52,112 bases of DNA, taken from positions 1-52,112 of the forward strand of contig JAQULS010000002.1 in the NCBI GenBank assembly GCA_028749235.1. The letters run 5' to 3'. Every line of letters starts with the position of its first letter. Position 1 is the stretch's first letter. A model generated the notes under the pieces. That model was not told the origin of the DNA, searched no databases, and saw only the letters and a list, made by a program, of their open reading frames with translations. Origin of the DNA: Acidobacteriota bacterium (GTDB lineage: Bacteria; Acidobacteriota; Aminicenantia; Aminicenantales; UBA4085). The position numbers and the translations under genes are program-made. Of the stretch, positions 5,919-51,409 are shown piece by piece.

Positions 5919-6608
5919 ATGAACGGCCTTTTCGGCGACGTCGCCCTGCTTCTCCAGAACAATCCCTGGCTGGCGGTCGTCGCGGTTTTCTTCGGCGGCG
6001 TCACCACGGCGCTCAATCCCTGCGTTCTGGCGATGATCCCGCTCTTGATGAGCGTCGTGGCAGGCAATCGGGAAACGACGACCGTGAAGCGCTCGCTGGT
6101 TTTCTCCCTGTTTTTTGTCCTGGGCTTGGCCGTGACTTTCACCGTTCTGGGCCTCATCTCCGCCCTCCTCGGCCGCATGTTCGGAGACATCGGCGCCTTC
6201 TGGAAATACATCGTCGTTGCGGTTTGCCTGGTCATGGGGCTTCACTTGTTGGGCCTGTTTCCGTGGAAGCTCGGCTTTTCAACAGGCATCCGGGTTCACA
6301 AGCGTGGCTTCCTGGGCGCTTTCCTGCTGGGGCTTCTTTTCGGCGTCGTTTCGACCCCCTGCGCCGTTCCCATACTGGCCGTGCTGCTGGCCTTCGTGGC
6401 CGAGAAAGGGAATGTCGTCTACGGCGGATTCTTGCTATTCGTCTACGCCCTGGGCCATTCGGCCCTCATCCTCGTCGCCGGGACGTCCGTCGGCGCAGCC
6501 AAGGCCCTCTTGGAGTCCAAGGGGCTGAGGAAAGCCCACGGTGTCATCCAGAAAATCGCCGGCATACTGATCATCGGCATCGGGCTGTATTTCCTGTTCG
6601 GGAAATAA
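5919..6608 (+). CDS. ccdA: Cytochrome c biogenesis / thiol-disulfide electron transporter CcdA (DsbD core)
   Basis: Conserved PC motifs LNPCVLAMIPLL and STPCAVPILA in a 6-TM protein. Confidence 0.85.
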   Translation: MNGLFGDVALLLQNNPWLAVVAVFFGGVTTALNPCVLAMIPLLMSVVAGNRETTTVKRSLVFSLFFVLGLAVTFTVLGLISALLGRMFGDIGAFWKYIVVAVCLVMGLHLLGLFPWKLGFSTGIRVHKRGFLGAFLLGLLFGVVSTPCAVPILAVLLAFVAEKGNVVYGGFLLFVYALGHSALILVAGTSVGAAKALLESKGLRKAHGVIQKIAGILIIGIGLYFLFGK

Positions 6609-6714
6609 ACCCGCTCGATACCCCGGGCTAAAGCCCGGGGTATGAACAGGGTTAATACTGAGCGGCGCTCATGACCCCGATTTGAAAATCGGAGTTTCAG
6701 CGCCGCGAACGTAT
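6609..6714 (+). repeat. Copy A of a ~106-nt two-hairpin intergenic element
   Basis: Near-identical to 49132-49237. Hairpin 1 at 6618-6643 (ATACCCCGGGC/GCCCGGGGTAT). Hairpin 2 has outer stem GCGGCGCT (6662-6669) / AGCGCCGC (6699-6706) and inner stem CCGAT/ATCGG. Starts immediately after the ccdA stop. Confidence 0.85.
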
Positions 6715-10506: not shown

Positions 10507-10551
10507 GCCGGCCCCGGCGGGACGGATGGGACTTCTGCACACGTCCTTGCG

Positions 10552-10573
10552 GGCCCGCTTTCGCGGGCCTTTT
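10552..10573 (+). terminator. Rho-independent terminator after vapC
   Basis: GGCCCGC-TTTC-GCGGGCC hairpin followed by TTTT. Confidence 0.6.
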
Positions 10574-10577
10574 AATA

Positions 10578-12909: not shown

Positions 12910-12933
12910 TCGCGCCGTTAAAAGAGACGTCCA

Positions 12934-12980
12934 AGCCCCGCCTTCGTTCCCCCGCCGGGACCGAGGACGGGGCTTTTTTT
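12934..12980 (+). terminator. Terminator hairpin between convergent eno and ogt
   Basis: AGCCCCGCCTTCG ... CGAGGACGGGGCT long stem followed by TTTTTTT. Overlaps the ogt stop. Confidence 0.6.
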
Positions 12981-14916: not shown

Positions 14917-17295
14917 TTGTTTCATCCCCTCCTGCCGCTGGCCCTGGCCTTCATCGCCGGCATCCTGATCGGGAGCGCGATGAAAAGCCCCGCGGCCGCG
15001 TTCCTGGCGTTTGCGGCCGCCTGCCTCGGCCTGGGATGGCGGGCTTATCGGCGCGGCCGCCACGGACGGGCCGCGGCGGCCGCCCTGGCCGCCTGCGCCG
15101 CGCTGGGGGCGGCCCTCTGCATGGACGCGGAAACCCGCTTCGCCTCCCATCCCCTGCGTTCGCTCCCGGCCGGCGCCTCCGTGGAGCTTAACGGCGTCCT
15201 GGCCCGGACGCCGTCATTCGGCCTGGATACCGATCGGATCTTCCTGCGCGTCGAGAAAGCGGAGCTGGCCGGCCGGGTGGTCCGCGTTACCGGCCTGGCC
15301 CGCGTCACGGTGCCCCGGACGCCCTTCTCGAGCCGCCTCCGGTCCTATCGCACCGGCGACCGACTGCTCCTCGCGGCGACGGTTCTGCCGCCGCGCGAAT
15401 TCGCCAACTTCGGCCGCCCCTTCTCGGAGCGCTATCTGCGGACCCAGGGGCTTCACCTTTTGGCCTCGGTCAAGAGCCCCCTTCTCATCGAACGGACGGA
15501 GGCCGCGCCCCGGTGCTCTCCGGCGCGCCTGATCTCCGGGCTGCGACGATCCTTCCTGGATGTCGTGGGGGTGGGTTTCGCGGATCCGAAAGCGCCCGGG
15601 GGAGTCCGGCCGGAGGGGGCGGTCCTGGAGGCGCTTCTCCTGGGCGAGCGCGGCCGCATGGACGAGACGATGACCCGCTCTTTGCAAGCCACCGGCCTGT
15701 TCCACCTGATCGCCATTTCCGGGGCCCATATCGGCATCATCGCCGCCTTTCTTTTCGCCGTTCTGCGGGCCGCCCGGGTCCGCGACCGGACGGCCTCCCT
15801 TATCCTGATCGGCGTTCTCGTCTTCTACGGCTTCCTGGTCGAAGGCCGGGCCTCGGTCGTGCGCGCCGTCGTCATGGCCGTCCTGTATCTCGCCGGACGC
15901 CTTCTCTGGAAGGACGTCGGCCTGCTCAACACCCTGGCGGCCAGCGCCCTCCTCCTCCTGGCCGTGGATCCTGTTCAACTCTTCGACCAGGGCTTCACCC
16001 TGACCTTCGCCGCGACCCTGGCCATCCTCCTTTTCTACCAGCCGATACGGAAGCGGATGCCCCGGCTCCCGCTGAAGCTCGGCGAGTCGGCGGCCTTGTC
16101 GCTATCCGCCCAAATCGGGGTTCTGCCGCTCACCGTCGCCGCCTTCCATCGCGTGGCCTTGTCCGCGATTCCCCTCAACTTCATCGCCGTCCCTCTCGTC
16201 AGCGTCATCATGGCGGCGGGCTATGTGTATCTTCCGCTCGGCCTTCTGGGCTCCGGCCCGGCCCGGCTGGGCGGGGCTGCGCTCCGGCCGCTGGTCTCAC
16301 TTTTCATCCGGTCGCTCGGGCTCCTGGACGGCATTCCGATCCTCTCGTATCGCGTGCCGACGCTCCCCGGCTGGACGGCCTGGGTCTATGCGGCTTCCTA
16401 CCTGGCCCTGCTCTGGCCCGCGCGGACCCGCCCGCGACGCCTGGCGGCTGCCGCGGCCGCCGCGCTGTCCACCCTGTTCATCATCCTTGTTCCGTTCCCC
16501 GCCAGGGCGCGCGGCTTTCGGGTCACGATTTTCGACGTCGGGCAAGGAGACTCGATCCTGGTCGAGCTTCCGGGATCGCCGCCGCTTCTCATCGACGGCG
16601 GCGGATCGGCCTACGGGAGCTTCGACATCGGCGAAAACGTCGTCTCGCCGGCCCTTTGGGATCGCCACATCCGTCGGCTCGGAGCGGTCGTTTTAACCCA
16701 TGCCCATCCCGATCACCGGCGCGGTCTCCTGGCCGTGGCCCGGAACTTCCGGGTCCGCGAATTCTGGGAGGCACCCGGCGGCCCGCGCGATGAGGAGGCG
16801 GATTCACTCGACAAGGCGCTCCGCGGTACCGCACGCTGGACCTTGACGGCCGGAGCGATCCGGCGAATCGGCGCCGCGACGATCGAAGTCCTCTCGCCCG
16901 AGGGAGAGGCTTCTCCTCGCGGCGGCGACGAAAACGACCGTTCTCTCGTTCTGCGCCTGACCTACGGACGGACGGTCTTTCTCTTTCCGGGAGACATCGG
17001 CTCCGGCGTGGAAGCGCGCCTTGTCCGCTCCGGCCGGATGCTCCGGGCGGACGTCCTCAAGGCGCCTCATCACGGCAGCCGAACGTCAAATTCGCGGGAC
17101 TTCCTGGCGGCCGCGGCCCCGCGGCTTATCGTCATCACCGCCGGCCGGGGCAATCCGTTCCGGTTGCCCCACCCCGAAGCGCTGGCCCGACTGGAGGAGA
17201 CGGGGGCAAGAATCCTGCGAACCGATTCCCGGGGAGCCGTGGAGATCCGCTCGGACGGCAAGAACATCAGCATCCGGGCAGCGAGGGATCCTTGA
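14917..17295 (+). CDS. comEC: DNA internalization competence protein ComEC/Rec2 with C-terminal MBL domain
   Basis: Competence-domain LIAISGAHIGII in a polytopic core. C-terminal metallo-beta-lactamase HAHPDHRRG and APHHGS. TTG start is uncertain. Confidence 0.85.
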   Translation: MFHPLLPLALAFIAGILIGSAMKSPAAAFLAFAAACLGLGWRAYRRGRHGRAAAAALAACAALGAALCMDAETRFASHPLRSLPAGASVELNGVLARTPSFGLDTDRIFLRVEKAELAGRVVRVTGLARVTVPRTPFSSRLRSYRTGDRLLLAATVLPPREFANFGRPFSERYLRTQGLHLLASVKSPLLIERTEAAPRCSPARLISGLRRSFLDVVGVGFADPKAPGGVRPEGAVLEALLLGERGRMDETMTRSLQATGLFHLIAISGAHIGIIAAFLFAVLRAARVRDRTASLILIGVLVFYGFLVEGRASVVRAVVMAVLYLAGRLLWKDVGLLNTLAASALLLLAVDPVQLFDQGFTLTFAATLAILLFYQPIRKRMPRLPLKLGESAALSLSAQIGVLPLTVAAFHRVALSAIPLNFIAVPLVSVIMAAGYVYLPLGLLGSGPARLGGAALRPLVSLFIRSLGLLDGIPILSYRVPTLPGWTAWVYAASYLALLWPARTRPRRLAAAAAAALSTLFIILVPFPARARGFRVTIFDVGQGDSILVELPGSPPLLIDGGGSAYGSFDIGENVVSPALWDRHIRRLGAVVLTHAHPDHRRGLLAVARNFRVREFWEAPGGPRDEEADSLDKALRGTARWTLTAGAIRRIGAATIEVLSPEGEASPRGGDENDRSLVLRLTYGRTVFLFPGDIGSGVEARLVRSGRMLRADVLKAPHHGSRTSNSRDFLAAAAPRLIVITAGRGNPFRLPHPEALARLEETGARILRTDSRGAVEIRSDGKNISIRAARDP

Positions 17296-17396
17296 TCCCG
17301 AGCACCCTCGCGAAGACTTTCGAAACGACTGTCTTTTCGAGGGCGGCGAGGGATCCGGCCGTTGACAAGCCGCCGGGACGGGGATATCCTCGAATC

Positions 17397-17999
17397 ATGG
17401 TTCCGACGCGCAAGGCCGCGGCTTGGCTGACGGTCGTCTGGCTGGCCGCCGGGTCCCTGTTCGGCCAAAATCTGGTCGAAACCGCCCGCAGGGAAAAGGC
17501 GCGGCGCGAAGCCTCCAAGAAACAGACGGCCACGGCCGTCACCAACGCCGATCTCACCCGGGCCAAGAAGAAGCCGGCCATGACCACGCTGCCGGCCGCA
17601 AAGGCCGCCGCCGGCGAGGAGGAGTTTTCCTCCCCCGACCAGGCGCCCCCTTCGGCCGTCGCCGCGCCCAGCGCCGTTCCCGCGCCCCAAAGCGCGACCG
17701 ATGCCGCCTCGGAATCGGCTCCCAACTTCGATCAAAAGAAGGCCGAGCTCACGACCGCCCAGGAACGGGCCCAAGAGCGGGCCGAGCTCCTGGACCTGAA
17801 AATGAGGGCCCTCAACCAACAGATGATGACCTTCGACAGCATGGCCACCAAGGACCAGATCCAAAGGGCCATCGCCGAGACGTACCAAAAGCTGCTGGAT
17901 GCCCGGGCCGAGGCGGTCAAGGCGAAGGAAGCGCTGGAAAAGTTCCTCAATCAATCGGCTTCGGCCGGGACGTCGCCCCTCTGGATCAAGACGCCCTGA
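17397..17999 (+). CDS. Secreted coiled-coil protein (hypothetical)
   Basis: Signal peptide MVPTRKAAAWLTVVWLAAGSLFG, an Ala/Pro-rich linker and a C-terminal heptad-like region. Confidence 0.55.
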   Translation: MVPTRKAAAWLTVVWLAAGSLFGQNLVETARREKARREASKKQTATAVTNADLTRAKKKPAMTTLPAAKAAAGEEEFSSPDQAPPSAVAAPSAVPAPQSATDAASESAPNFDQKKAELTTAQERAQERAELLDLKMRALNQQMMTFDSMATKDQIQRAIAETYQKLLDARAEAVKAKEALEKFLNQSASAGTSPLWIKTP

Positions 18000-18041
18000 A
18001 AAGAAAAGACCCTCTCCCGATTTCGGGAAAAAGATTAAAAA

Positions 18042-18908
18042 TCAGCGGTAGTAGATCAGCCCGACCATGATCCCGAGTTCGCGTTCGTCCTTGGACTCGG
18101 GTATGAGCTTGGCCGGAACAAACGGCTTATCGACGCTGATCGTCAGGATAAACTCGTCCTTGTCCCCCACCATCTCCTTCTTAACGGCGTAGGTCTTCTC
18201 GAAGTTCGCCTCTTCCGGGACGAACTCGTCGAACGGCAGGCCGTTGATCTTGAAGGAGATCTTCTGATCCCGGATGAAGTCCTTGATGGTCCCGCCGCGG
18301 ATGACCAGGGTGGCGTCCCGCTTGGGATTGTCCACGACGCAGGTGGCTTCCTTGGCCGTCCAGCGCCACTGCTTCAGCGGGGAGTTCTGGTCGATCTCCA
18401 GGTCGTACCAGCCGCTCTCGTAGATGACCTCCGGGGTTCCGAGCGGCGGCGGCACGACCTTGAGCTTCTTGGACAGGATTTCGCGCTGCGCGTTCCCGCT
18501 CCGGTCGAAGGCATTGTAGAATCCGACGGAAAGGCGGAGCGTTTCTTCGCCCTTGAAGGTGGGGTCGAACTCGTCGATGAACTTGGGGATCAGGATCCGG
18601 CGCTTGAAGACGTATTCCTTACCCGCCTCCCATTTCGAGGTGGGCACATCGGGGGTAAAATCATCCTGGACGATGAGGTTGGCCTTGTGCCAGAAATGGA
18701 CGAAGATGCTGTAATCCCGATCCAGCGGCTTGAAGTCGGCGGACGTTTTCCAGGTGTAGATCACATCGGTGATCAAGTTGTCGGAAAGCTTCGCTTCGCC
18801 GAAACCGACGGCAAGATCCACACCCATGACCGAGGTCTTCTTGTGGCAGGCGAAAGCGGCCGCGGCGACGAGACCGATTACAACGACAAGGCGCAAGCGA
18901 AGTTTCAT
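18042..18908 (-). CDS. Lipoprotein-like hypothetical with C-terminal GWY..E/..RW..RELG domain
   Basis: Signal/lipobox-like LVAAAAFAC. The C-terminal ESGWYDLE...WRWT...RELGIMV domain is also present twice in the 21695 rSAM protein. Confidence 0.65.
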   Translation of the reverse strand: MKLRLRLVVVIGLVAAAAFACHKKTSVMGVDLAVGFGEAKLSDNLITDVIYTWKTSADFKPLDRDYSIFVHFWHKANLIVQDDFTPDVPTSKWEAGKEYVFKRRILIPKFIDEFDPTFKGEETLRLSVGFYNAFDRSGNAQREILSKKLKVVPPPLGTPEVIYESGWYDLEIDQNSPLKQWRWTAKEATCVVDNPKRDATLVIRGGTIKDFIRDQKISFKINGLPFDEFVPEEANFEKTYAVKKEMVGDKDEFILTISVDKPFVPAKLIPESKDERELGIMVGLIYYR

Positions 18909-25284: not shown

Positions 25285-27609
25285 ATGGTTTCCGAACGAG
25301 TCAAGCAAATCGGCGCCTCCCCGACGCTGCGCATCGCGGCCAAGGCCAAGGCTCTGAAGGCCGAGGGAATAGACATCGTCGATTTGAGCATCGGCGAGCC
25401 CGACTTCCCGACGCCGGAGTCCATCAAGGCGGCCGGGATCAAGGCCATCCAGGACAACTTCACCAAGTACACCCAGAACGAGGGCACTCCGGCCCTGAAG
25501 AAGGCCATCCTGGCCCGCTTCAAGGAGGACTTCGGGGTGGACTACGCGTCCAACGAAGTCATCGTCTCCTCCGGAGCCAAGAGCTCGCTCTACCACTTGA
25601 TGCTGGCCCTGCTCGACCCCGGCGACGAGGTCATCATCCCCGTCCCTTACTGGGTCACGTATCCCCACCAGGTCAAGCTGGCCAAGGGCAAGCCCGTCCT
25701 GGTCGAGACCAAGGAAGAGGAGGGTTTCGTGCTGACGGCGGAAGCCCTCAAAGCCGCCATCACGCCCGCCACCCGGGCGGTCCTCCTCAATTCGCCGTCC
25801 AATCCGACGGGGGCGGCCTACACCAAGGCCCAGCTCCAGGCTTTGGCCGACGTCGTCCGCGGCGAGGACCTCTACGTCGTCGCCGACGAGATCTACGCCT
25901 CGCTCGTTTACGACGGCTTTCCCTTCACCAGCTTCGCCGCCCTGGGCGAGGATATCAAGAACAAAACGGTCATCATCAACGGCCCCTCCAAGTCCTACTC
26001 CATGACCGGCTGGCGCATCGGCTACGCCTTGGGGCCGGCCGACGTCATCGCCGGCATGGCCAAGATCCAGAGTCACACCACCTCCAACGCGGCCTCGATC
26101 TCCCAACGGGCCACCCAGGAGGCCGTTTCGGGCCCGCAGTTCGAAGTGGCCCGCATGGCCCAGGAGTTCGGCCGCCGGCGCAATTACGCCTTGATGAAGC
26201 TGCAGGCGATTCCGGGCCTGTCCTGCTTCAAGCCGCAGGGAGCCTTCTACCTCTTCCCCAACGTCAAGGCTTTCTACGACAAGGAGTTCAACGGGACGCC
26301 GATTCGGAATTCCAACGGCATGGCCTACTACCTCCTGCGCGAAACCGGAGTGGCCATCGTCCCCGGCGACGCTTTCGGCGCCGACGATTACATCCGGCTG
26401 TCCTACGCCACGTCGATGGAAAACCTGGAGAAAGGGCTGGACCGCATCGCCCGCGCCCTGGCCAAGCTTCAGCCGGCCCGCAAGGCCAAGCGCGTCGCCC
26501 TGGCCAACTATGCGGCCAGGGTCCGCAAGCCCGTCCCGGTTGACGCCGGGATGACGATCGCCGTCCGCGACGGCCTGGTCGCCGAAGCGGAATCGCGCCT
26601 GGGACTGGAGAATGCCTTCGAATGGAACGCGGTCATCAACGGCGTCGTCGTCCAGCTGCGGACCAACGTCGCCCATCTCAATGATTTCTGGATGGACAAT
26701 TGGTATCCGGCCCAGCTCGAGGCCGGCCTGGAGCCGCACGGCGTCATCTACGCCGTGGACGGCATCCCCGGTCGCGAGCCGCGGGCTCTCTACAACACCG
26801 AGACCAAGACCGGCGTCCTGGTCAACTGCGACGCCTACGGTCCCCTGCGCAGCCTGGCCCTGGGGCTGGCGGCCGACGTTGGCGAGCGGTCGTTCGGCAT
26901 CCACCCGGTGCGGGGGATGTCGGTTGACGCGGGCGGGGAAGGGCTGGCCCTGATCGGGCCGCCCGGGACGAAGAAGACGGACCTCTTCTTCGGACTGTTG
27001 CGCGATCCGCGCTACAAGTTCCACGCCGGCGACGTCTTCTTCGTCCGCTACGCGGGCAAGGCCGCCTTGGCCGACGCCGTGGAGCGCAAGGCTTTTTTGC
27101 CGACTTCGACCGTGGAGATCTTCGGCCGGATGGCGGCCCTGTTCGACGGCAGCAAGTGCGAGAACGTCGTCCTGCACAAGGACGACTGCAAAGACGCCGC
27201 ATGCCTGCGCGGCGAGGACTGCCGGCTGGATCGCGGCTCGCCCTTCTGCTACAAGGCGGCCAAGGACGCCCACGGGCTGGTCGATCCCAATTGGATCGCC
27301 GGCGCCCAGGGCGTCGCGCGCCGGACGACGCTGAAAAAGATTGTCCTTTTGCGCAACGACTCCGTCTCGCCGGCCGTGGTGGAGCTTTCGCCCGAGGAGG
27401 CCCTCCACATCCTGGCCGCGGGTGAGAGCCCGGGCATGAAGTCGGGCCTAACGGCCAAGCCGGTGCCCTTCTTCAACCCACATTTGCTCGCGGCGACCGA
27501 AGAGCGAAGGGAACTGCAGCGGGCGGCTTTCCAGAGGCTCCTTCAAAGCGCCCGCGTCTGGCTGTTTAATAGCGGCGCGGCGGGCGTCGATGCTATCAAA
27601 GAGCTATAG
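25285..27609 (+). CDS. Class I PLP aminotransferase (AspAT-like) fused to a ~375-aa C-terminal P-loop-containing domain
   Basis: The N-terminal ~400 aa carries NGPSKSYSMTGWRIGY (PLP lysine). The extension from ~26480 contains GPPGTKKTD (26956-26979). A single uninterrupted frame ends at TAG 27607-27609. Confidence 0.85.
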   Translation: MVSERVKQIGASPTLRIAAKAKALKAEGIDIVDLSIGEPDFPTPESIKAAGIKAIQDNFTKYTQNEGTPALKKAILARFKEDFGVDYASNEVIVSSGAKSSLYHLMLALLDPGDEVIIPVPYWVTYPHQVKLAKGKPVLVETKEEEGFVLTAEALKAAITPATRAVLLNSPSNPTGAAYTKAQLQALADVVRGEDLYVVADEIYASLVYDGFPFTSFAALGEDIKNKTVIINGPSKSYSMTGWRIGYALGPADVIAGMAKIQSHTTSNAASISQRATQEAVSGPQFEVARMAQEFGRRRNYALMKLQAIPGLSCFKPQGAFYLFPNVKAFYDKEFNGTPIRNSNGMAYYLLRETGVAIVPGDAFGADDYIRLSYATSMENLEKGLDRIARALAKLQPARKAKRVALANYAARVRKPVPVDAGMTIAVRDGLVAEAESRLGLENAFEWNAVINGVVVQLRTNVAHLNDFWMDNWYPAQLEAGLEPHGVIYAVDGIPGREPRALYNTETKTGVLVNCDAYGPLRSLALGLAADVGERSFGIHPVRGMSVDAGGEGLALIGPPGTKKTDLFFGLLRDPRYKFHAGDVFFVRYAGKAALADAVERKAFLPTSTVEIFGRMAALFDGSKCENVVLHKDDCKDAACLRGEDCRLDRGSPFCYKAAKDAHGLVDPNWIAGAQGVARRTTLKKIVLLRNDSVSPAVVELSPEEALHILAAGESPGMKSGLTAKPVPFFNPHLLAATEERRELQRAAFQRLLQSARVWLFNSGAAGVDAIKEL

Positions 27610-27789
27610 GTTAATCCCGCGCAGTCCTCGTTAAGACGTCGCTTCGAAGGTCTTCGCGAGGGCGGCGTGGCGGGCGTCGATGCCATCAAAGAACTATAGG
27701 TGAATCCCGCGCAGTCCTCGTTAAGACGTCGCTTCGAAGGTCTTCGCGAGGGCGGCGCGGCTGGTGTAGAAGACATCAAAGAGCGATAA
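27571..27789. repeat. 90-bp tandem repeat, about 2.4 units, overlapping the 3' end of the aminotransferase-fusion gene
   Basis: Unit 1 is 27571-27660 and unit 2 is 27661-27750 (5 mismatches in 90). A diverged partial unit 3 is 27751-27789. Each unit ends its coding-like part with an in-frame stop (TAG, TAG, TAA). Confidence 0.9.
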
Positions 27790-27793
27790 ACGA

Positions 27794-28321
27794 TCAGGAC
27801 CCGGATACGCCGCTCCGCGGTCCGCGGATGAATGCTCCGTTCAGCGAAATCAGGTCTTTCTCGAAGTCCGCCGCGGACGAGATCGTGTACAGCCCCGCCT
27901 CCGGCGTCGCTGCCGCGTAGGTGAAGCTTTCCCTGACGCCGCCGCGCGTGTACGACGTGATCAGAAAATCATCATTGCTCGACCCCGTGATCCCGTAGTT
28001 CCCATCCACGGCCGTGCCGCAGTACACTTTAAAGCTCGTTCCCCATTGGTCGTTCAGCGGCAGGACCTTAAGGTACATCGGCGAGAGGGCGCTCTTCAGC
28101 GCGTCGCTGATATCGCCGCTGTTGGCCGGAGGAATGGTTTTATCCGAAATATAATTGACCAGTGTCGTCGCGATGGTGGAGATGTCTTTCTGCGTTCCGC
28201 GTATTCTCGCTTTCTGTATGCCGTTCATGGCATTCGGCACGAGCAGGGCGGCCAGGATACCGATGATCGCGACAACGACCAACAGCTCGATCAGAGTGAA
28301 GCCGTTTTCCCGATTGAGCAT
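27794..28321 (-). CDS. pilA: Type IVa pilin (prepilin with N-terminal cleavage/methylation motif)
   Basis: MLNRENG/FTLIELLVVVAIIGILAALLVPN. AAGGAG RBS. A sigma-54 promoter lies about 50 nt upstream. Confidence 0.85.
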   Translation of the reverse strand: MLNRENGFTLIELLVVVAIIGILAALLVPNAMNGIQKARIRGTQKDISTIATTLVNYISDKTIPPANSGDISDALKSALSPMYLKVLPLNDQWGTSFKVYCGTAVDGNYGITGSSNDDFLITSYTRGGVRESFTYAAATPEAGLYTISSAADFEKDLISLNGAFIRGPRSGVSGS

Positions 28322-28373
28322 GGCGCACTCCTTTTCGCGGCAGCCCGCAAACGTATCCACCGGATGATCCGAC

Positions 28374-28388
28374 GCAAGCCGCGTGCCA
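28374..28388 (-). promoter_or_regulatory. Sigma-54 (-24/-12) promoter of pilA
   Basis: The reverse strand reads TGGCACGCGGCTTGC, matching TGGCAC-N5-TTGC with correct GG/GC spacing. A sigma-54 activator (pilR) is in the cluster. Confidence 0.75.
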
Positions 28389-28431
28389 AACACGGACGGT
28401 TATATCATATTGATAGTCTTAGGAATAATAA

Positions 28432-28496
28432 ACCCGTTCACTGAGCGGCGCTTATAACCCCGATTTGAAAATCGGGGTTTGGCGCCGCGAATGTAT
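28432..28496 (+). repeat. Copy B (short form) of the two-hairpin element, lacking hairpin 1
   Basis: ACCCGTTCACTGAGCGGCGCTTATAACCCCGATTTGAAAATCGGGGTTTGGCGCCGCGAATGTAT aligns to both ends of copies A and C, with the ~41-nt hairpin-1 segment missing. Confidence 0.75.
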
Positions 28497-28573
28497 CCAT
28501 CTCTCGGAACCCATAAATGCCAATTATCGTCACTAGCGATAAAATTGAGGCCGATTTTTGTCATTGAAGAGGG

Positions 28574-28606: not shown

Positions 28607-28636
28607 GGCAGGTCTTGCGTTCAGGTCAGCCGATCA

Positions 28637-28816
28637 TCAGGTCCCGGAAACGCCGGCCCGGGGGCAACGAATGAACGACCCGTTCAGGGAAATCAGGTCC
28701 TTCGTGAAGTCCGCCGTGGTTGAGATCGTGTAGAGTCCCGATTCCGGCGTAGCCGCCGTGTAGGTGAAGCTCTCCAGCGTGCCGCCCCGGCCGTAGGAGG
28801 AAATCAGGAAATCGTC
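28637..28816 (-). pseudogene. Truncated pilin 3' cassette (C-terminal 59 codons, paralogous to pilA)
   Basis: DDFLISSYGRGGTLESFTYTAATPESGLYTISTTADFTKDLISLNGSFIRCPRAGVSGT matches the pilA C-terminus at about 46/59 identities by manual alignment. It lacks the prepilin N-terminus, and upstream DNA is AT-rich and unrelated. Confidence 0.65.
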
Positions 28817-28933
28817 CGTGAGTAGCCTTTGCATATTATATATAATCAATAAGATATAAACTGGAATAAATAATAAGGGCGTCCTTTTGGACATTATTTG
28901 GCACTAAATGCCAATTTTTGTCAAAAAGCGTGG

Positions 28934-37395: not shown

Positions 37396-37448
37396 TCCAA
37401 AGGCCCGCTCATCGTAACAGCGGGCCGATTTCTTGTCAATTTAACGGG

Positions 37449-48660: not shown

Positions 48661-49131
48661 ATGAAGAAGAAAATGTGGATGGTCGCGGCGGTCCTGGGAC
48701 TGGCCCTGATCCTGACCGGAGTCGCCGCGGCGCAGGAAAAGCCCAAGGCGGCGACGGTTAACCTCAAGGTCCTCCCGCCCGTCGTCCTAAAAGCCTTCCA
48801 AGCGGCCTATCCCAACGCCGTGATCAAGGGCGCTTCCAAGGAAACGGAGAAGGGGGCAACCCAGTACGAAGTGGAGAGTATGGACGGCGCCCTCAATCGC
48901 GATCTTCTCTACGCGGCCGACGGCAAGATTCTCGAGATCGAGGAATCGACCGCCCCGGAGAACCTCCCGGCGCCCGTCAAGCAGATCCTGGCCAAAGACT
49001 ACGCCGGGGCCAAGATCCTCAGGGCTGAGATCCTGACTAAGGCCGGCGTCAAGTCTTTCGAGCTGGCCATCGAGCTCAAAGGCAAAAAAATGGAAGTGAC
49101 GATCGACCCCCAGGGCAAGATCGTCAAATGA
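48661..49131 (+). CDS. Secreted PepSY-like / beta-lactamase-inhibitor-like repeat protein
   Basis: Signal peptide MKKKMWMVAAVLGLALILTGVAAA. Two repeats of the LP.V.KAF...YP.A.I pattern. AGGAG RBS. Confidence 0.65.
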   Translation: MKKKMWMVAAVLGLALILTGVAAAQEKPKAATVNLKVLPPVVLKAFQAAYPNAVIKGASKETEKGATQYEVESMDGALNRDLLYAADGKILEIEESTAPENLPAPVKQILAKDYAGAKILRAEILTKAGVKSFELAIELKGKKMEVTIDPQGKIVK

Positions 49132-49237
49132 ACCCGCTCGATACCCCGGGCTTTAGCCCGGGGTATTAACAGGGTTAATACTGAGCGACGCTTTTTACCC
49201 CGATTTAAAAATCGGAGTCTGAGCACCGCGAACGTAT
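49132..49237 (+). repeat. Copy C of the ~106-nt two-hairpin intergenic element
   Basis: Aligns end-to-end with 6609-6714. Starts immediately after a stop codon. The hairpin-1 loop is the reverse complement of that in copy A (CTTTAG vs CTAAAG). Confidence 0.85.
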
Positions 49238-50360: not shown

Positions 50361-50900
50361 ATGGCCCCCCCATACCGCCTGATCGGCCTGACCGGGACGA
50401 ACGGCTCCGGCAAGGGCGAAGCCGCCGACTGGCTGCGCGGGCGCGGCTACTCTTATCTCTCGCTCTCCGACGTCATCCGGGACGAGCTTCGCCGCGACGG
50501 CATCCCCGAGACGCGCGACGCCCTGATCGCGCGGGGCAACGCCTTGCGGCAGGCCTTCGGGCCCGACGTCCTGGCTCGGCGGGTGTTGGCCCGGGTGGAA
50601 GGCCCGACGGTCGTCGACAGCATCCGCAATCCGGAGGAAGTGGCGGCCCTGCGGCGCGAAGAGGGGTTCGTCCTGATCGCCTTCGACGCTCCCGCCGCCC
50701 TCCGTTTCGAGCGAGTCGTCCGGCGCGGCCGGGATGAATCGGCGGCCGACCTCGAGGCCTTCCTCCGCAAGGAAGCCGAAGAACGCGGCTCGGACCCGGC
50801 CGCGCAGCAGATCGACGCCTGCATCGCCCTGGCCGACATCCGGATCACGAACGGCGGCACGCTCGAGGACCTGCATCGCAGCCTGGAGGAAGCCCTATGA
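50361..50900 (+). CDS. P-loop nucleotide kinase (CoaE/dNMP-kinase-like)
   Basis: Walker A LTGTNGSGKGE. About 180 aa. ATGA-coupled to the dCMP deaminase gene. Confidence 0.65.
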   Translation: MAPPYRLIGLTGTNGSGKGEAADWLRGRGYSYLSLSDVIRDELRRDGIPETRDALIARGNALRQAFGPDVLARRVLARVEGPTVVDSIRNPEEVAALRREEGFVLIAFDAPAALRFERVVRRGRDESAADLEAFLRKEAEERGSDPAAQQIDACIALADIRITNGGTLEDLHRSLEEAL

Positions 50901-51409
50901 CCCAGTCACGGATCAGCAAGGACGAGTATTACCTGGGCATCGCCCGGTAGGTCGGCCGGAGGAGCACCTGCTTCCGCCGGACCATCGGGGCGCTCATCGT
51001 CCGCGACGACCAGATCATCTCCACCGGCTATGTCGGCGCCCCGCGTAAGACCCGGGACAGCATCTCCCACGGCTTCTGCCTGCGGGACAAGCTGGCCATC
51101 CCGCACGGCCAGCGCTACGAGCTGTGCCGCTCGGTCCACGCCGAGCAGAACGCCATCATCAACGCCGCCCGGGCCGGGGTCAGTCTCCTCGGCGGCGACA
51201 TGTACATCTTCGGCAGCGAGCCCGGCGACGGCGGGAAACCCGTCAACGCCTTCCCCTGCTACATCTGCAAGAAAATGATCATCAACGCCGGCCTCGACCG
51301 GGTCATCTGCTCCACGGCCGACGGAGAATTTCTCGTGTTCCGGATCGAGGATTGGGCCACGGCCTGGCGCGAAGGAGACATCCTCGATGACACCCACCAA
51401 TACGGATAA
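50897..51409 (+). pseudogene. comEB: dCMP deaminase (ComEB-type) interrupted by one in-frame TAG at codon 18
   Basis: The frame from ATG 50897 reads MTQSRISKDEYYLGIAR-TAG-VGRRSTCFRR...HAEQNAI...PCYICKKM...*. Catalytic HAE and PCxxC motifs are intact. TAG at 50948-50950 is the only disruption. Confidence 0.75.

Follow-up and report, generated by a model that had tools for sequence, protein, structure and literature searches.

The window analysed here, a stretch of 52,112 nucleotides from an Acidobacteriota bacterium, contains a pair of convergent genes separated by a tandem array, and the coordinates of these features are collected in Table 1. In the product of the first gene, residues 30-388 form a class I/II aminotransferase according to both Pfam and NCBIfam, the remaining domain of about 380 aa received no family assignment from either, and a lookup with the exact 774-aa protein gave no match. 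The C-terminus reads ...LFNSGAAGVDAIKEL-TAG and falls in a conserved motif, LFNSGxAGxxxIKE(I/L), that is common to about 100 homologues. The convergent GspG/PilA-like protein has the N-terminal methylation motif. Our search for RNA-seq runs containing the array locus found none.

Table 1. Coordinates of the array segments, the flanking genes and the related hairpin behind ComEC
Feature	Position	Strand	Description	Basis
Aminotransferase-fusion CDS	25285..27609	+	774 aa	ORF list, translation, Pfam, NCBIfam
A1	27572..27609	+	functional gene tail: last 12 codons and TAG; first copy of the 38-nt A segment	
B1	27610..27661	+	52-nt spacer with palindromic hairpin	
A2	27662..27699	+	non-functional gene-tail copy, 35/38 identical to A1, ends in TAG	
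B2	27700..27751	+	second hairpin-spacer copy, 51/52 identical to B1	
A3	27752..27789	+	older, more diverged gene-tail copy, 30/38 identical to A1, ends in TAA	
Prepilin-type (GspG/PilA-like) gene, convergent	27794..28393	-	stop codon at 27794-27796	
Third hairpin-family member	17293..17356	-	inverted, directly behind the ComEC stop codon (17293-17295)	pattern search, fold, alignment

TRF reports a single array at 27572-27782 (period 90, 2.3 copies, 91% matches), and a separate repeat search returned the same register. The layout is A1-B1-A2-B2-A3, in which the gene tail with its TAG is followed by a 52-nt hairpin spacer, a second tail, a second spacer and a third tail that closes with TAA, the stop of the pilin-like gene lying 4 nt away. 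The translation through the whole array, ...NSGAAGVDAIKEL*VNPAQSSLRRRFEGLREGGVAGVDAIKEL*VNPAQSSLRRRFEGLREGGAAGVEDIKER*, has, as the first-pass annotation had described, no stops other than TAG at 27607-27609, TAG at 27697-27699 and TAA at 27787-27789. The GTN that had been noted after both array TAGs, and after an in-frame TAG at 50948, is also there; the two array contexts are copies of one another and count as a single observation. An antisense ORF of 78 aa (27543-27779) was dismissed as merely the repeat read backwards, and integron attC and CRISPR-like readings were dropped: B1 and B2 share their sequence, a GTTRRRY core is missing, and the neighbours are housekeeping genes.

The 90-bp tandem repeat is real, its junctions being spanned by independent short-read contigs from three studies. 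Logan contigs of the landfill runs X2 and X4 cover A1-B1-A2 and B1-A2-B2, and a contig of the groundwater run X8 covers A2-B2 and the start of A3, with 4 differences in that register vs 9 in that of A1-B1-A2. The junction-crossing contigs include the copy-specific variants at 27612/27702, 27668, 27684 and 27693. All three runs agree with one architecture, in contigs that are too short for counting copies.

A low-copy hairpin family behind stop codons

B1 folds into a stem-loop at about 27616-27672 (MFE -33.5 kcal/mol, z=-3.7) and B2 into one at about 27707-27760 (MFE -35.0 kcal/mol, z=-4.0), so that the hairpin starts 6-7 nt after each array TAG. The 3' outer arm of the B1 hairpin falls within the first 9-11 nt of A2, where a C to T change at 27668 retains the pair as G-U. 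No U-tract or terminator-like site was found on either strand in 27300-28500; canonical terminators occur elsewhere in the window.

A third, inverted copy lies at the ComEC gene (MFE -36.7 kcal/mol, z=-4.2), flanked by a 16-nt direct repeat (17276-17291 and 17341-17356, 15/16 identical). The exact stem pattern has 3 matches in the window vs 0 expected. A covariance model gives the ComEC copy 72.7 bits (E=2.6e-14), a match by construction, as the model was built from the same three copies; it returned no further member in the window or in 20 related loci. Co-occurring relatives have a B-like hairpin in the gap between the orthologues of the genes at 17292-17999 and 18042-18908, which are a different convergent pair. 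Two scans of JGI metagenome contigs, one with strict stems and one with a pattern shared with the related locus L004, each gave 0 matches, and neither a scan of viral contigs nor BLAST against plasmids gave any. Rfam returned nothing on the repeat beyond microRNA noise below its threshold, and over the whole window its only matches were the two tRNAs. B is a member of a small, low-copy, dispersed family of REP-like palindromic hairpins in this Aminicenantes lineage. If these hairpins have a role, it would probably be that of a 3'-end stem-loop on the mRNA, acting as a stabiliser or as a terminator of a kind that dispenses with the U-tract.

Relatives, substitutions and the use of TAG

When orthologous loci were compared for repeat number, the closest relative (L017/L001, 94% aa, a long-read style assembly) was without the repeat: its ...LKEL-TAA leads directly to the pilin stop, and both B and any additional A are missing. 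In L004 (88% aa) there is a single B-like spacer and no second tail, and in L002 (80% aa) a canonical terminator occupies the gap instead. The L004 spacer is homologous to B1 (27/32 nt, with 0/2000 shuffles as good). It has no significant similarity to A3 (390/2000 shuffles), so that this comparison gave no sign of a former second tail in L004. Between the IKE(I/L) motif and the C-terminus, orthologue proteins have 0-12 aa, and a VNPAQSSLRRRF-like extension is absent from all of them.

The array had been read as bearing a coding signature, on the grounds that substitutions between its units favour third codon positions. Between units 1 and 2 we found four substitutions (three in A, one in B) rather than the five claimed, three of them at position 3 as counted earlier; the comparison of A2 with A3 gave the same nine differing sites, six at position 3. 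The pairwise counts pooled in the figure of 9/14 are not independent. There are 11 distinct variable sites, of which position 3 accounts for 8, position 2 for 3 and position 1 for none (p=0.009).

We polarised the changes with the outgroups L004, L017 and L003. A3 keeps the ancestral GAA and TAA, while the derived GAT and TAG are common to A1 and A2; both changes, GAA to GAT and TAA to TAG, arose in the functional copy A1. In the copies beyond the stop, 5/8 changes are at position 3 (p=0.088), and for the changes derived in A3 the figure is 3/5 (p=0.21). Four consecutive third positions changed in A3, the A3-specific changes all make rare codons (GCT, GGT, GTA, CGA), and radical replacements (A to D, L to R) are among the changes in this copy. 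Once branches are assigned, the third-position excess weakens, and part of it belongs to functional A1. The weak signature has its sources in selection on the real tail A1, in ancestral states kept in A3 and in small numbers, and a neutral model accounts for the residual excess over the 11 sites only as chance. Read in frame, B has a CAI of 0.32-0.33 vs a gene mean of 0.71, which places it in the 1st percentile of real genes, and it uses TTA, AGA, CGT and GGT, each making up 1-4% of its codon family. Present or recent translation of the downstream copies is not supported, in view of the orthologues that lack the extension, the loss of significance on branch resolution and the CAI of B; the use of TAG, described next, tells against it too.

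TAG is an ordinary terminator in this window, as had been supposed: it ends 15 of 53 rough gene calls, at least 7 of them with complete Pfam domains, and behind one TAG-terminated gene the next start codon follows 1 nt later. The in-frame TAG of the dCMP-deaminase gene (50948) sits inside a conserved domain. The one independent read-out of this codon comes from a co-occurring strain with 99% identity and gives GAG, and the TAG lies within a cluster of 4 differences in 42 nt; it is therefore a nonsense allele or a consensus error.

Origin of the array

Based on these results, we consider it highly probable that the array is non-coding DNA between convergent genes, produced by a lineage-specific, two-step duplication of the gene tail together with the REP-like hairpin and since subject to neutral decay. 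Among the four options that the first-pass annotation had offered, the evidence supports the last, relics of serial 3' duplications. The module, made up of the gene's last 38 nt (stop codon included) and the 52-nt palindromic spacer, would have been duplicated twice. An older event may have given A-B-A', in which A' would be the present, decayed A3, and a recent event, either unequal crossing-over or slippage during replication, within the 10 nt still common to A1 and A3 (GCGGCGCGGC) would have turned this into A1-B1-A2-B2-A3, with the hairpin as a likely promoter of slippage. Translation would end at the first TAG. The in-frame layout arises because the period of 90 nt preserves the frame, for which there is a 1-in-3 chance, and because the stop codon was copied with the unit.

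An alternative for the first step, which we regard as unlikely, treats the hairpin as a small mobile palindromic element which inserted at the gene's 3' end, so that A would be a 38-nt target-site duplication and insertion, not slippage, would have come before the second duplication; such a palindrome would land at stop codons and duplicate unusually long stretches of tail (16-38 nt). The L017 locus fits, since the tail there abuts the pilin stop at the very place that A3 takes up in the array, as do the direct repeat around the ComEC copy, whose upstream half lies in the ComEC tail, and the occurrence of the family at different intergenic sites in relatives. However, the target duplications made by known transposases are far shorter and less variable than 38 and 16 nt, the B-like sequence that L004 has at this locus comes with no duplicated tail, and at ComEC the closest relative (L019) does not offer a clean empty site, since part of the downstream repeat copy is already present in its spacer. 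The family also occupies only 2 loci in 52 kb and has no match in viral contigs or plasmids.

Less probable still is UAG readthrough, programmed or leaky, by which the hairpin would slow termination and a fraction of the protein would gain 30, more rarely 60, residues, as C-terminally extended isoforms repeating an AGV(D/E)xIKE(L/R) motif. In its most explicit form, to which we give very little credence, UAG, a 6-7-nt spacer and a hairpin would make up a bacterial readthrough signal, and the duplication would have created three nested isoforms (+0, +30 and +60 aa), each ending in the conserved AGVxxIKE. The uninterrupted frame, the strong hairpins at a fixed distance from each TAG (the geometry of known readthrough stimulators) and the nominal excess at third positions speak for it. 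Against this, the extension is missing in all relatives examined, one of them at 94% aa identity, the codon usage of B is non-coding, the branch-resolved excess is not significant, and the changes in A3 go to the rarest codons and include radical replacements. As TAG was copied with the unit, the frame and the stops are by-products of duplication, and passing two stops multiplies two small probabilities. G after UAG is, furthermore, not known as a leaky context among E. coli termination contexts. If true, readthrough here would be programmed and stimulated by RNA structure, which is rare in bacteria, and the evidence argues against it.

It is scarcely credible that this organism reads TAG as a sense codon, through a suppressor tRNA or by inserting pyrrolysine, with the TAA at 27787 as the true end of the gene and an intact dCMP deaminase. 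An in-frame TAG followed by GTN at two loci, one of them in a conserved domain, is what this reading has in its favour; yet genes that end in TAG encode Pfam domains with no C-terminal truncation, the deaminase TAG is not conserved in the co-occurring strain, the tRNAs in the 52-kb window are only tRNA-Arg(TCT) and tRNA-Pro(TGG), and none of the papers found connects Aminicenantes with Pyl decoding beyond incidental co-mention. The chance that the assembler collapsed or expanded the repeat is negligible: short-read graph contigs do break at repeat borders (27608 and 27728 in run X1) and the contig of a UBA4085 relative terminates within A, but three independent studies supply contigs that run across A1-B1-A2, B1-A2-B2 and A2-B2-A3 with the copy-specific variants included.

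Comparison with known systems

The gammaretroviral gag-pro readthrough signal consists of UAG, an 8-nt spacer and a pseudoknot (PMC13517186). The array resembles it in having a very stable predicted structure 6-7 nt behind a UAG, with an open frame beyond. Unlike that signal, it has a simple hairpin and not a pseudoknot, it is bacterial, and its extension has neither conservation nor a coding-like composition. With intrinsic (Rho-independent) terminators the array shares a GC-rich stem-loop placed between convergent genes, a position at which L002 has a textbook bidirectional terminator; it differs from them in that its hairpin has no U-tract on either strand.

The closeness to duplications by slipped-strand mispairing or unequal recombination lies in copies that are head-to-tail, in register and lineage-specific, in the identical 10-nt stretch at the unit borders and in an internal hairpin that could stall replication. 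What sets the array apart from such duplications is that its unit straddles the stop codon, so that the tail was copied with its stop, and that its copies fall into two age classes.

Gene 3' ends can also be displaced at integration sites; in E. coli, for example, the e14 element duplicates the tail of icd. There, as in our array, a functional tail is followed by a diverged copy with mostly synonymous differences, a pattern that reflects history and not current translation, and in this comparison the shared states do not separate A3 as a within-lineage copy from A3 as a foreign allele. Unlike those sites, the array has no integrase or integrated element, and its copies are only 52 nt apart. 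It can serve as a cautionary example: a tandem duplication that includes the stop codon automatically yields an in-frame, stop-punctuated "extension", in which a faint coding signature of the real gene tail can persist.

Finally, the hairpins differ from REP/BIME elements in their low number (only 3 copies in 52 kb and 2 in relatives, with no Rfam, plasmid or viral-contig match) and in alternating, within the array, with a copied coding tail and not with other REP motifs. They are nevertheless like REP/BIME in being imperfect palindromes of about 55 nt that are extragenic, lie just after stop codons, occur in both orientations and at several loci, and form a local tandem cluster. The modest positive result is thus an undescribed, low-copy family of palindromic hairpins in Aminicenantes, located behind stop codons and associated with local duplications.

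The array and its setting

Tandem Repeats Finder detects a single array of long period in the window (27572-27782; period 90, 2.3 copies, 91% matches), at the 3' end of the aminotransferase-fusion gene, and a second repeat search gave the same register, so the 90-bp tandem repeat of the first-pass annotation is present as described. Position-wise comparison divides the unit into two parts: A (38 nt), which comprises the stop and 12 final codons of the gene, and B (52 nt). The A copies are identical at 35/38 (A1/A2), 30/38 (A1/A3) and 29/38 (A2/A3) positions, and B1 and B2 at 51/52. Translated in the gene frame, the array reads ...AGVDAIKEL*VNPAQSSLRRRFEGLREGGVAGVDAIKEL*VNPAQSSLRRRFEGLREGGAAGVEDIKER*. 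Logan contigs of two landfill runs from separate studies (X2, X4) run through A1-B1-A2 and B1-A2-B2 with 0-1 differences, and a groundwater contig (X8) shows 4 differences from A2-B2-A3 against 9 in the other register; an assembly artefact is ruled out by these junction-spanning contigs and deserves practically no credence.

The source organism belongs to Candidatus Aminicenantes. The B-A-B-A extension takes up the 184 nt between two convergent stops, with A3 ending 4 nt from that of the pilin gene. The ~380-aa C-terminal domain of the fusion (26467-27606) has no family in Pfam or NCBIfam; within it lie a GPPGTKKT stretch resembling a P-loop and several conserved Cys. A homologue search found ~100 relatives of this domain, nearly always fused to an aminotransferase, in Aminicenantes, other Acidobacteriota, Zixibacteria and Latescibacteria. 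Paralogous prepilin-type genes adjoin in the window (the tabulated gene and ~28630-28900) and in the closest relative (L001, 7732-8259 and 9306-9830), downstream of genes for a sigma-54 response regulator, a PilS-like kinase and T2SS-F/E; together they are a type IV pilus / T2SS-like cluster.

Coordinates of the array and of associated features in the window
Feature	Position	Strand or orientation	Remarks
A1	27572-27609		
B1	27610-27661		
A2	27662-27699		
B2	27700-27751		
A3	27752-27789		
Class I/II aminotransferase + ~380-aa C-terminal domain fusion	25285-27609	plus	Pfam, NCBIfam
Prepilin-type protein gene	27794-28393	minus	convergent with the fusion; Pfam, NCBIfam
Third hairpin copy	17293-17356	inverted vs B	directly behind ComEC stop
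dCMP deaminase ORF	50897-51409		ATG 50897; interrupted at codon 18 by TAG 50948-50950, within conserved domain

Orthologous loci and the B hairpin

Every homologue that reaches the C-terminus carries LFNSGxAGxxx(I/L)K(E/D)(I/L) and ends 0-12 residues beyond this motif, and a VNPAQSSLRRRF-like extension occurs in none of them. In the closest relative (L017, the same locus as L001; 94% aa, 87% nt; contigs named in the style of long-read assemblies), ...CTT AAA GAG CTT TAA directly abuts the pilin stop, the two stops overlapping, and the locus DNA holds neither B nor a second tail. The spacer of L004 (88% aa) is 93 nt long and contains one B-like stretch (27/32 nt identical; 0/2000 shuffles did as well), while any second tail there falls short of significance. 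In L002 (80% aa) the gap holds a textbook bidirectional terminator. A UBA4085 contig (91% aa) stops within A, which is compatible with the repeat without proving it. Based on these loci and the homologue C-termini, the extension is a recent, lineage-specific insertion, and not a conserved coding feature.

The closest relative's assembly (contig_24201, MFD04716 MAG; source of L001, L017 and L019) contains many fragmented genes, including a Band_7 gene in pieces and an aminotransferase fusion frameshifted at ~residue 500. These breaks look like long-read indel errors, so proteins called from it (e.g. P0042) have spurious C-termini.

Both B copies form an extended, imperfect hairpin (-33.5 and -35.0 kcal/mol, z ~ -4, 0/200 shuffles as stable), which starts 6-7 nt past each TAG and has its 3' outer arm within the first 9-11 nt of the next A copy. 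B has no Rfam family match, and no U-tract adjoins the hairpin on either strand, in contrast with four canonical hairpin-plus-U-tract terminators of the window (12910-12978, 18000-18041, 10507-10576, 37396-37448), two of them bidirectional and between convergent genes. The hairpins may act in mRNA 3'-end stabilisation or termination.

The stem pattern CCTCG-NN-AAGAC...GTCTT-NN-CGAGG has 3 matches in the window, where 0 are expected. The third copy aligns with B over ~55 nt and scores 72.7 bits with a covariance model built from the same three copies, a match by construction. The first bases of this palindrome are the ComEC stop codon, and a direct repeat of 16 nt flanks it (15/16; GGGCAGCGAGGGATCC / GGGCGGCGAGGGATCC; palindrome and repeat together 17276-17356), the upstream copy falling within the ComEC tail. 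The closest relative's ComEC locus (L019) is not a clean empty site, so the direct repeat may or may not reflect an insertion mechanism. A B-like hairpin (43 nt, 6 differences) also occurs in contigs of runs X1 and X2; the sequences on either side are orthologues of the 3' ends of two window genes (17292-17999 and 18042-18908), which places the hairpin, in a relative, in another convergent-gene gap, occupied by a canonical terminator in this genome. The ComEC and X1/X2 copies show that B belongs to a low-copy, dispersed, REP-like palindrome family just 3' of stop codons.

For the ORF called at 17292-17999 the most probable start is ATG 17397, preceded by a promoter-like pair (TTGACA...TATCCT) that is kept in L019. 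A second dispersed repeat, unrelated to B and with no Rfam match (6603-6714 and 49126-49237; 112 nt, ~90% identical, two hairpins), starts at the stops of two unrelated genes, DsbD-like and PepSY-like, with an SBF-family transporter gene and TatC downstream.

Substitutions and the history of the array

The first-pass annotation had proposed, from an excess of third-position substitutions, that the copies beyond the first TAG are or recently were translated. Its 9/14 at position 3 does give p=0.017, but pairwise counts share sites, and the first two units differ at 4 sites rather than 5. Among distinct variable sites (n=11), third codon positions account for 8, second positions for 3 and first positions for 0 (binomial p=0.009). 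When substitutions are polarised with outgroups L004, L017 and L003, A3 keeps the ancestral GAA (Glu) and TAA stop, and A1 and A2 share derived GAT (Asp) and TAG; these two third-position differences arose in the functional tail, where coding constraint is expected, before the second duplication. The third-position difference at 27594 is unique to A1. Changes assignable to copies beyond the first stop fall at position 3 in 5/8 cases (p=0.088), and those derived in A3 alone in 3/5 (p=0.21). The A3-specific changes lead to GCT, GGT, GTA and CGA (6%, 4%, 1.6% and 4.7% of their codon families in the genome), and the replacements A->D and L->R are also among the A3 changes. B in frame contains TTA, AGA, CGT, GGT, CTT, GTT and AAT, with a CAI of 0.32-0.33 against a real-gene mean of 0.71 (1st percentile of in-frame windows). 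At a genome GC3 of ~0.9, this composition points to relaxed, AT-biased decay rather than a translated extension; together with relatives devoid of the extension, it leads us to set recent translation aside. Four third-position differences in a row in A3, a mild oddity, are attributable only to chance.

Relics of serial 3' duplications, an option also named in the first-pass annotation, are the most likely account of the lineage-specific extension. In an older step, a tail and hairpin spacer would have given A-B-A', either through hairpin-associated slippage or template switching, or through palindrome insertion with long target duplication. The functional tail would then have changed from GAA to GAT and TAA to TAG, and A' gained five neutral changes, before a recent unequal crossover or slippage in 10 nt common to A and A' produced A1-B1-A2-B2-A3. 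Four more substitutions would have followed, of which 27668 C->T retains a stem pair as G-U. The shared states, ATC and the final A of CTA/CGA, fit an A3 that is either a within-lineage duplicate or a tail from a diverged allele, ATC being undiagnostic since isoleucine is also the family-wide majority residue there. A mobile palindrome with long target duplication is an unlikely source of the first step, and concerns origin, not translation.

Decoding of TAG

Translation of the aminotransferase fusion ends at 27609. Hairpin-stimulated readthrough of TAG would have the right geometry, the structure lying 6-7 nt past the codon compared with the 8-nt spacer of gammaretroviral readthrough signals (PMC13517186). 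However, it fails on conservation, on the codon usage of B and on the branch-resolved substitution pattern, and we regard it as very improbable.

TAG serves as an ordinary stop codon in this genome. A rough gene call of the window gave TGA 27, TAG 15 and TAA 11, and 7 TAG-ended ORFs have Pfam domains complete to a few residues from the C-terminus, one with the next gene 1 nt downstream, in keeping with the earlier remark that TAG ends ordinary genes here. The in-frame TAG of the dCMP deaminase ORF, previously offered as a parallel case, is GAG in the only independent read-out, an X1 contig (759 nt, 99% identical), and is one of four differences clustered in 42 nt (50907, 50911, 50929, 50948); it is a nonsense allele, recombination patch or consensus error, and does not count as evidence for recoding. 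The tRNAs of the window are Arg-TCT and Pro-TGG only, and no paper linking Aminicenantes to pyrrolysine decoding turned up in a literature search; amber suppression, or the reading of TAG as pyrrolysine, can be given almost no weight. Tandem duplication relics and extragenic palindromes, the kinds of element of which we propose the array is made, are well known; this particular hairpin family has no description in the libraries searched.
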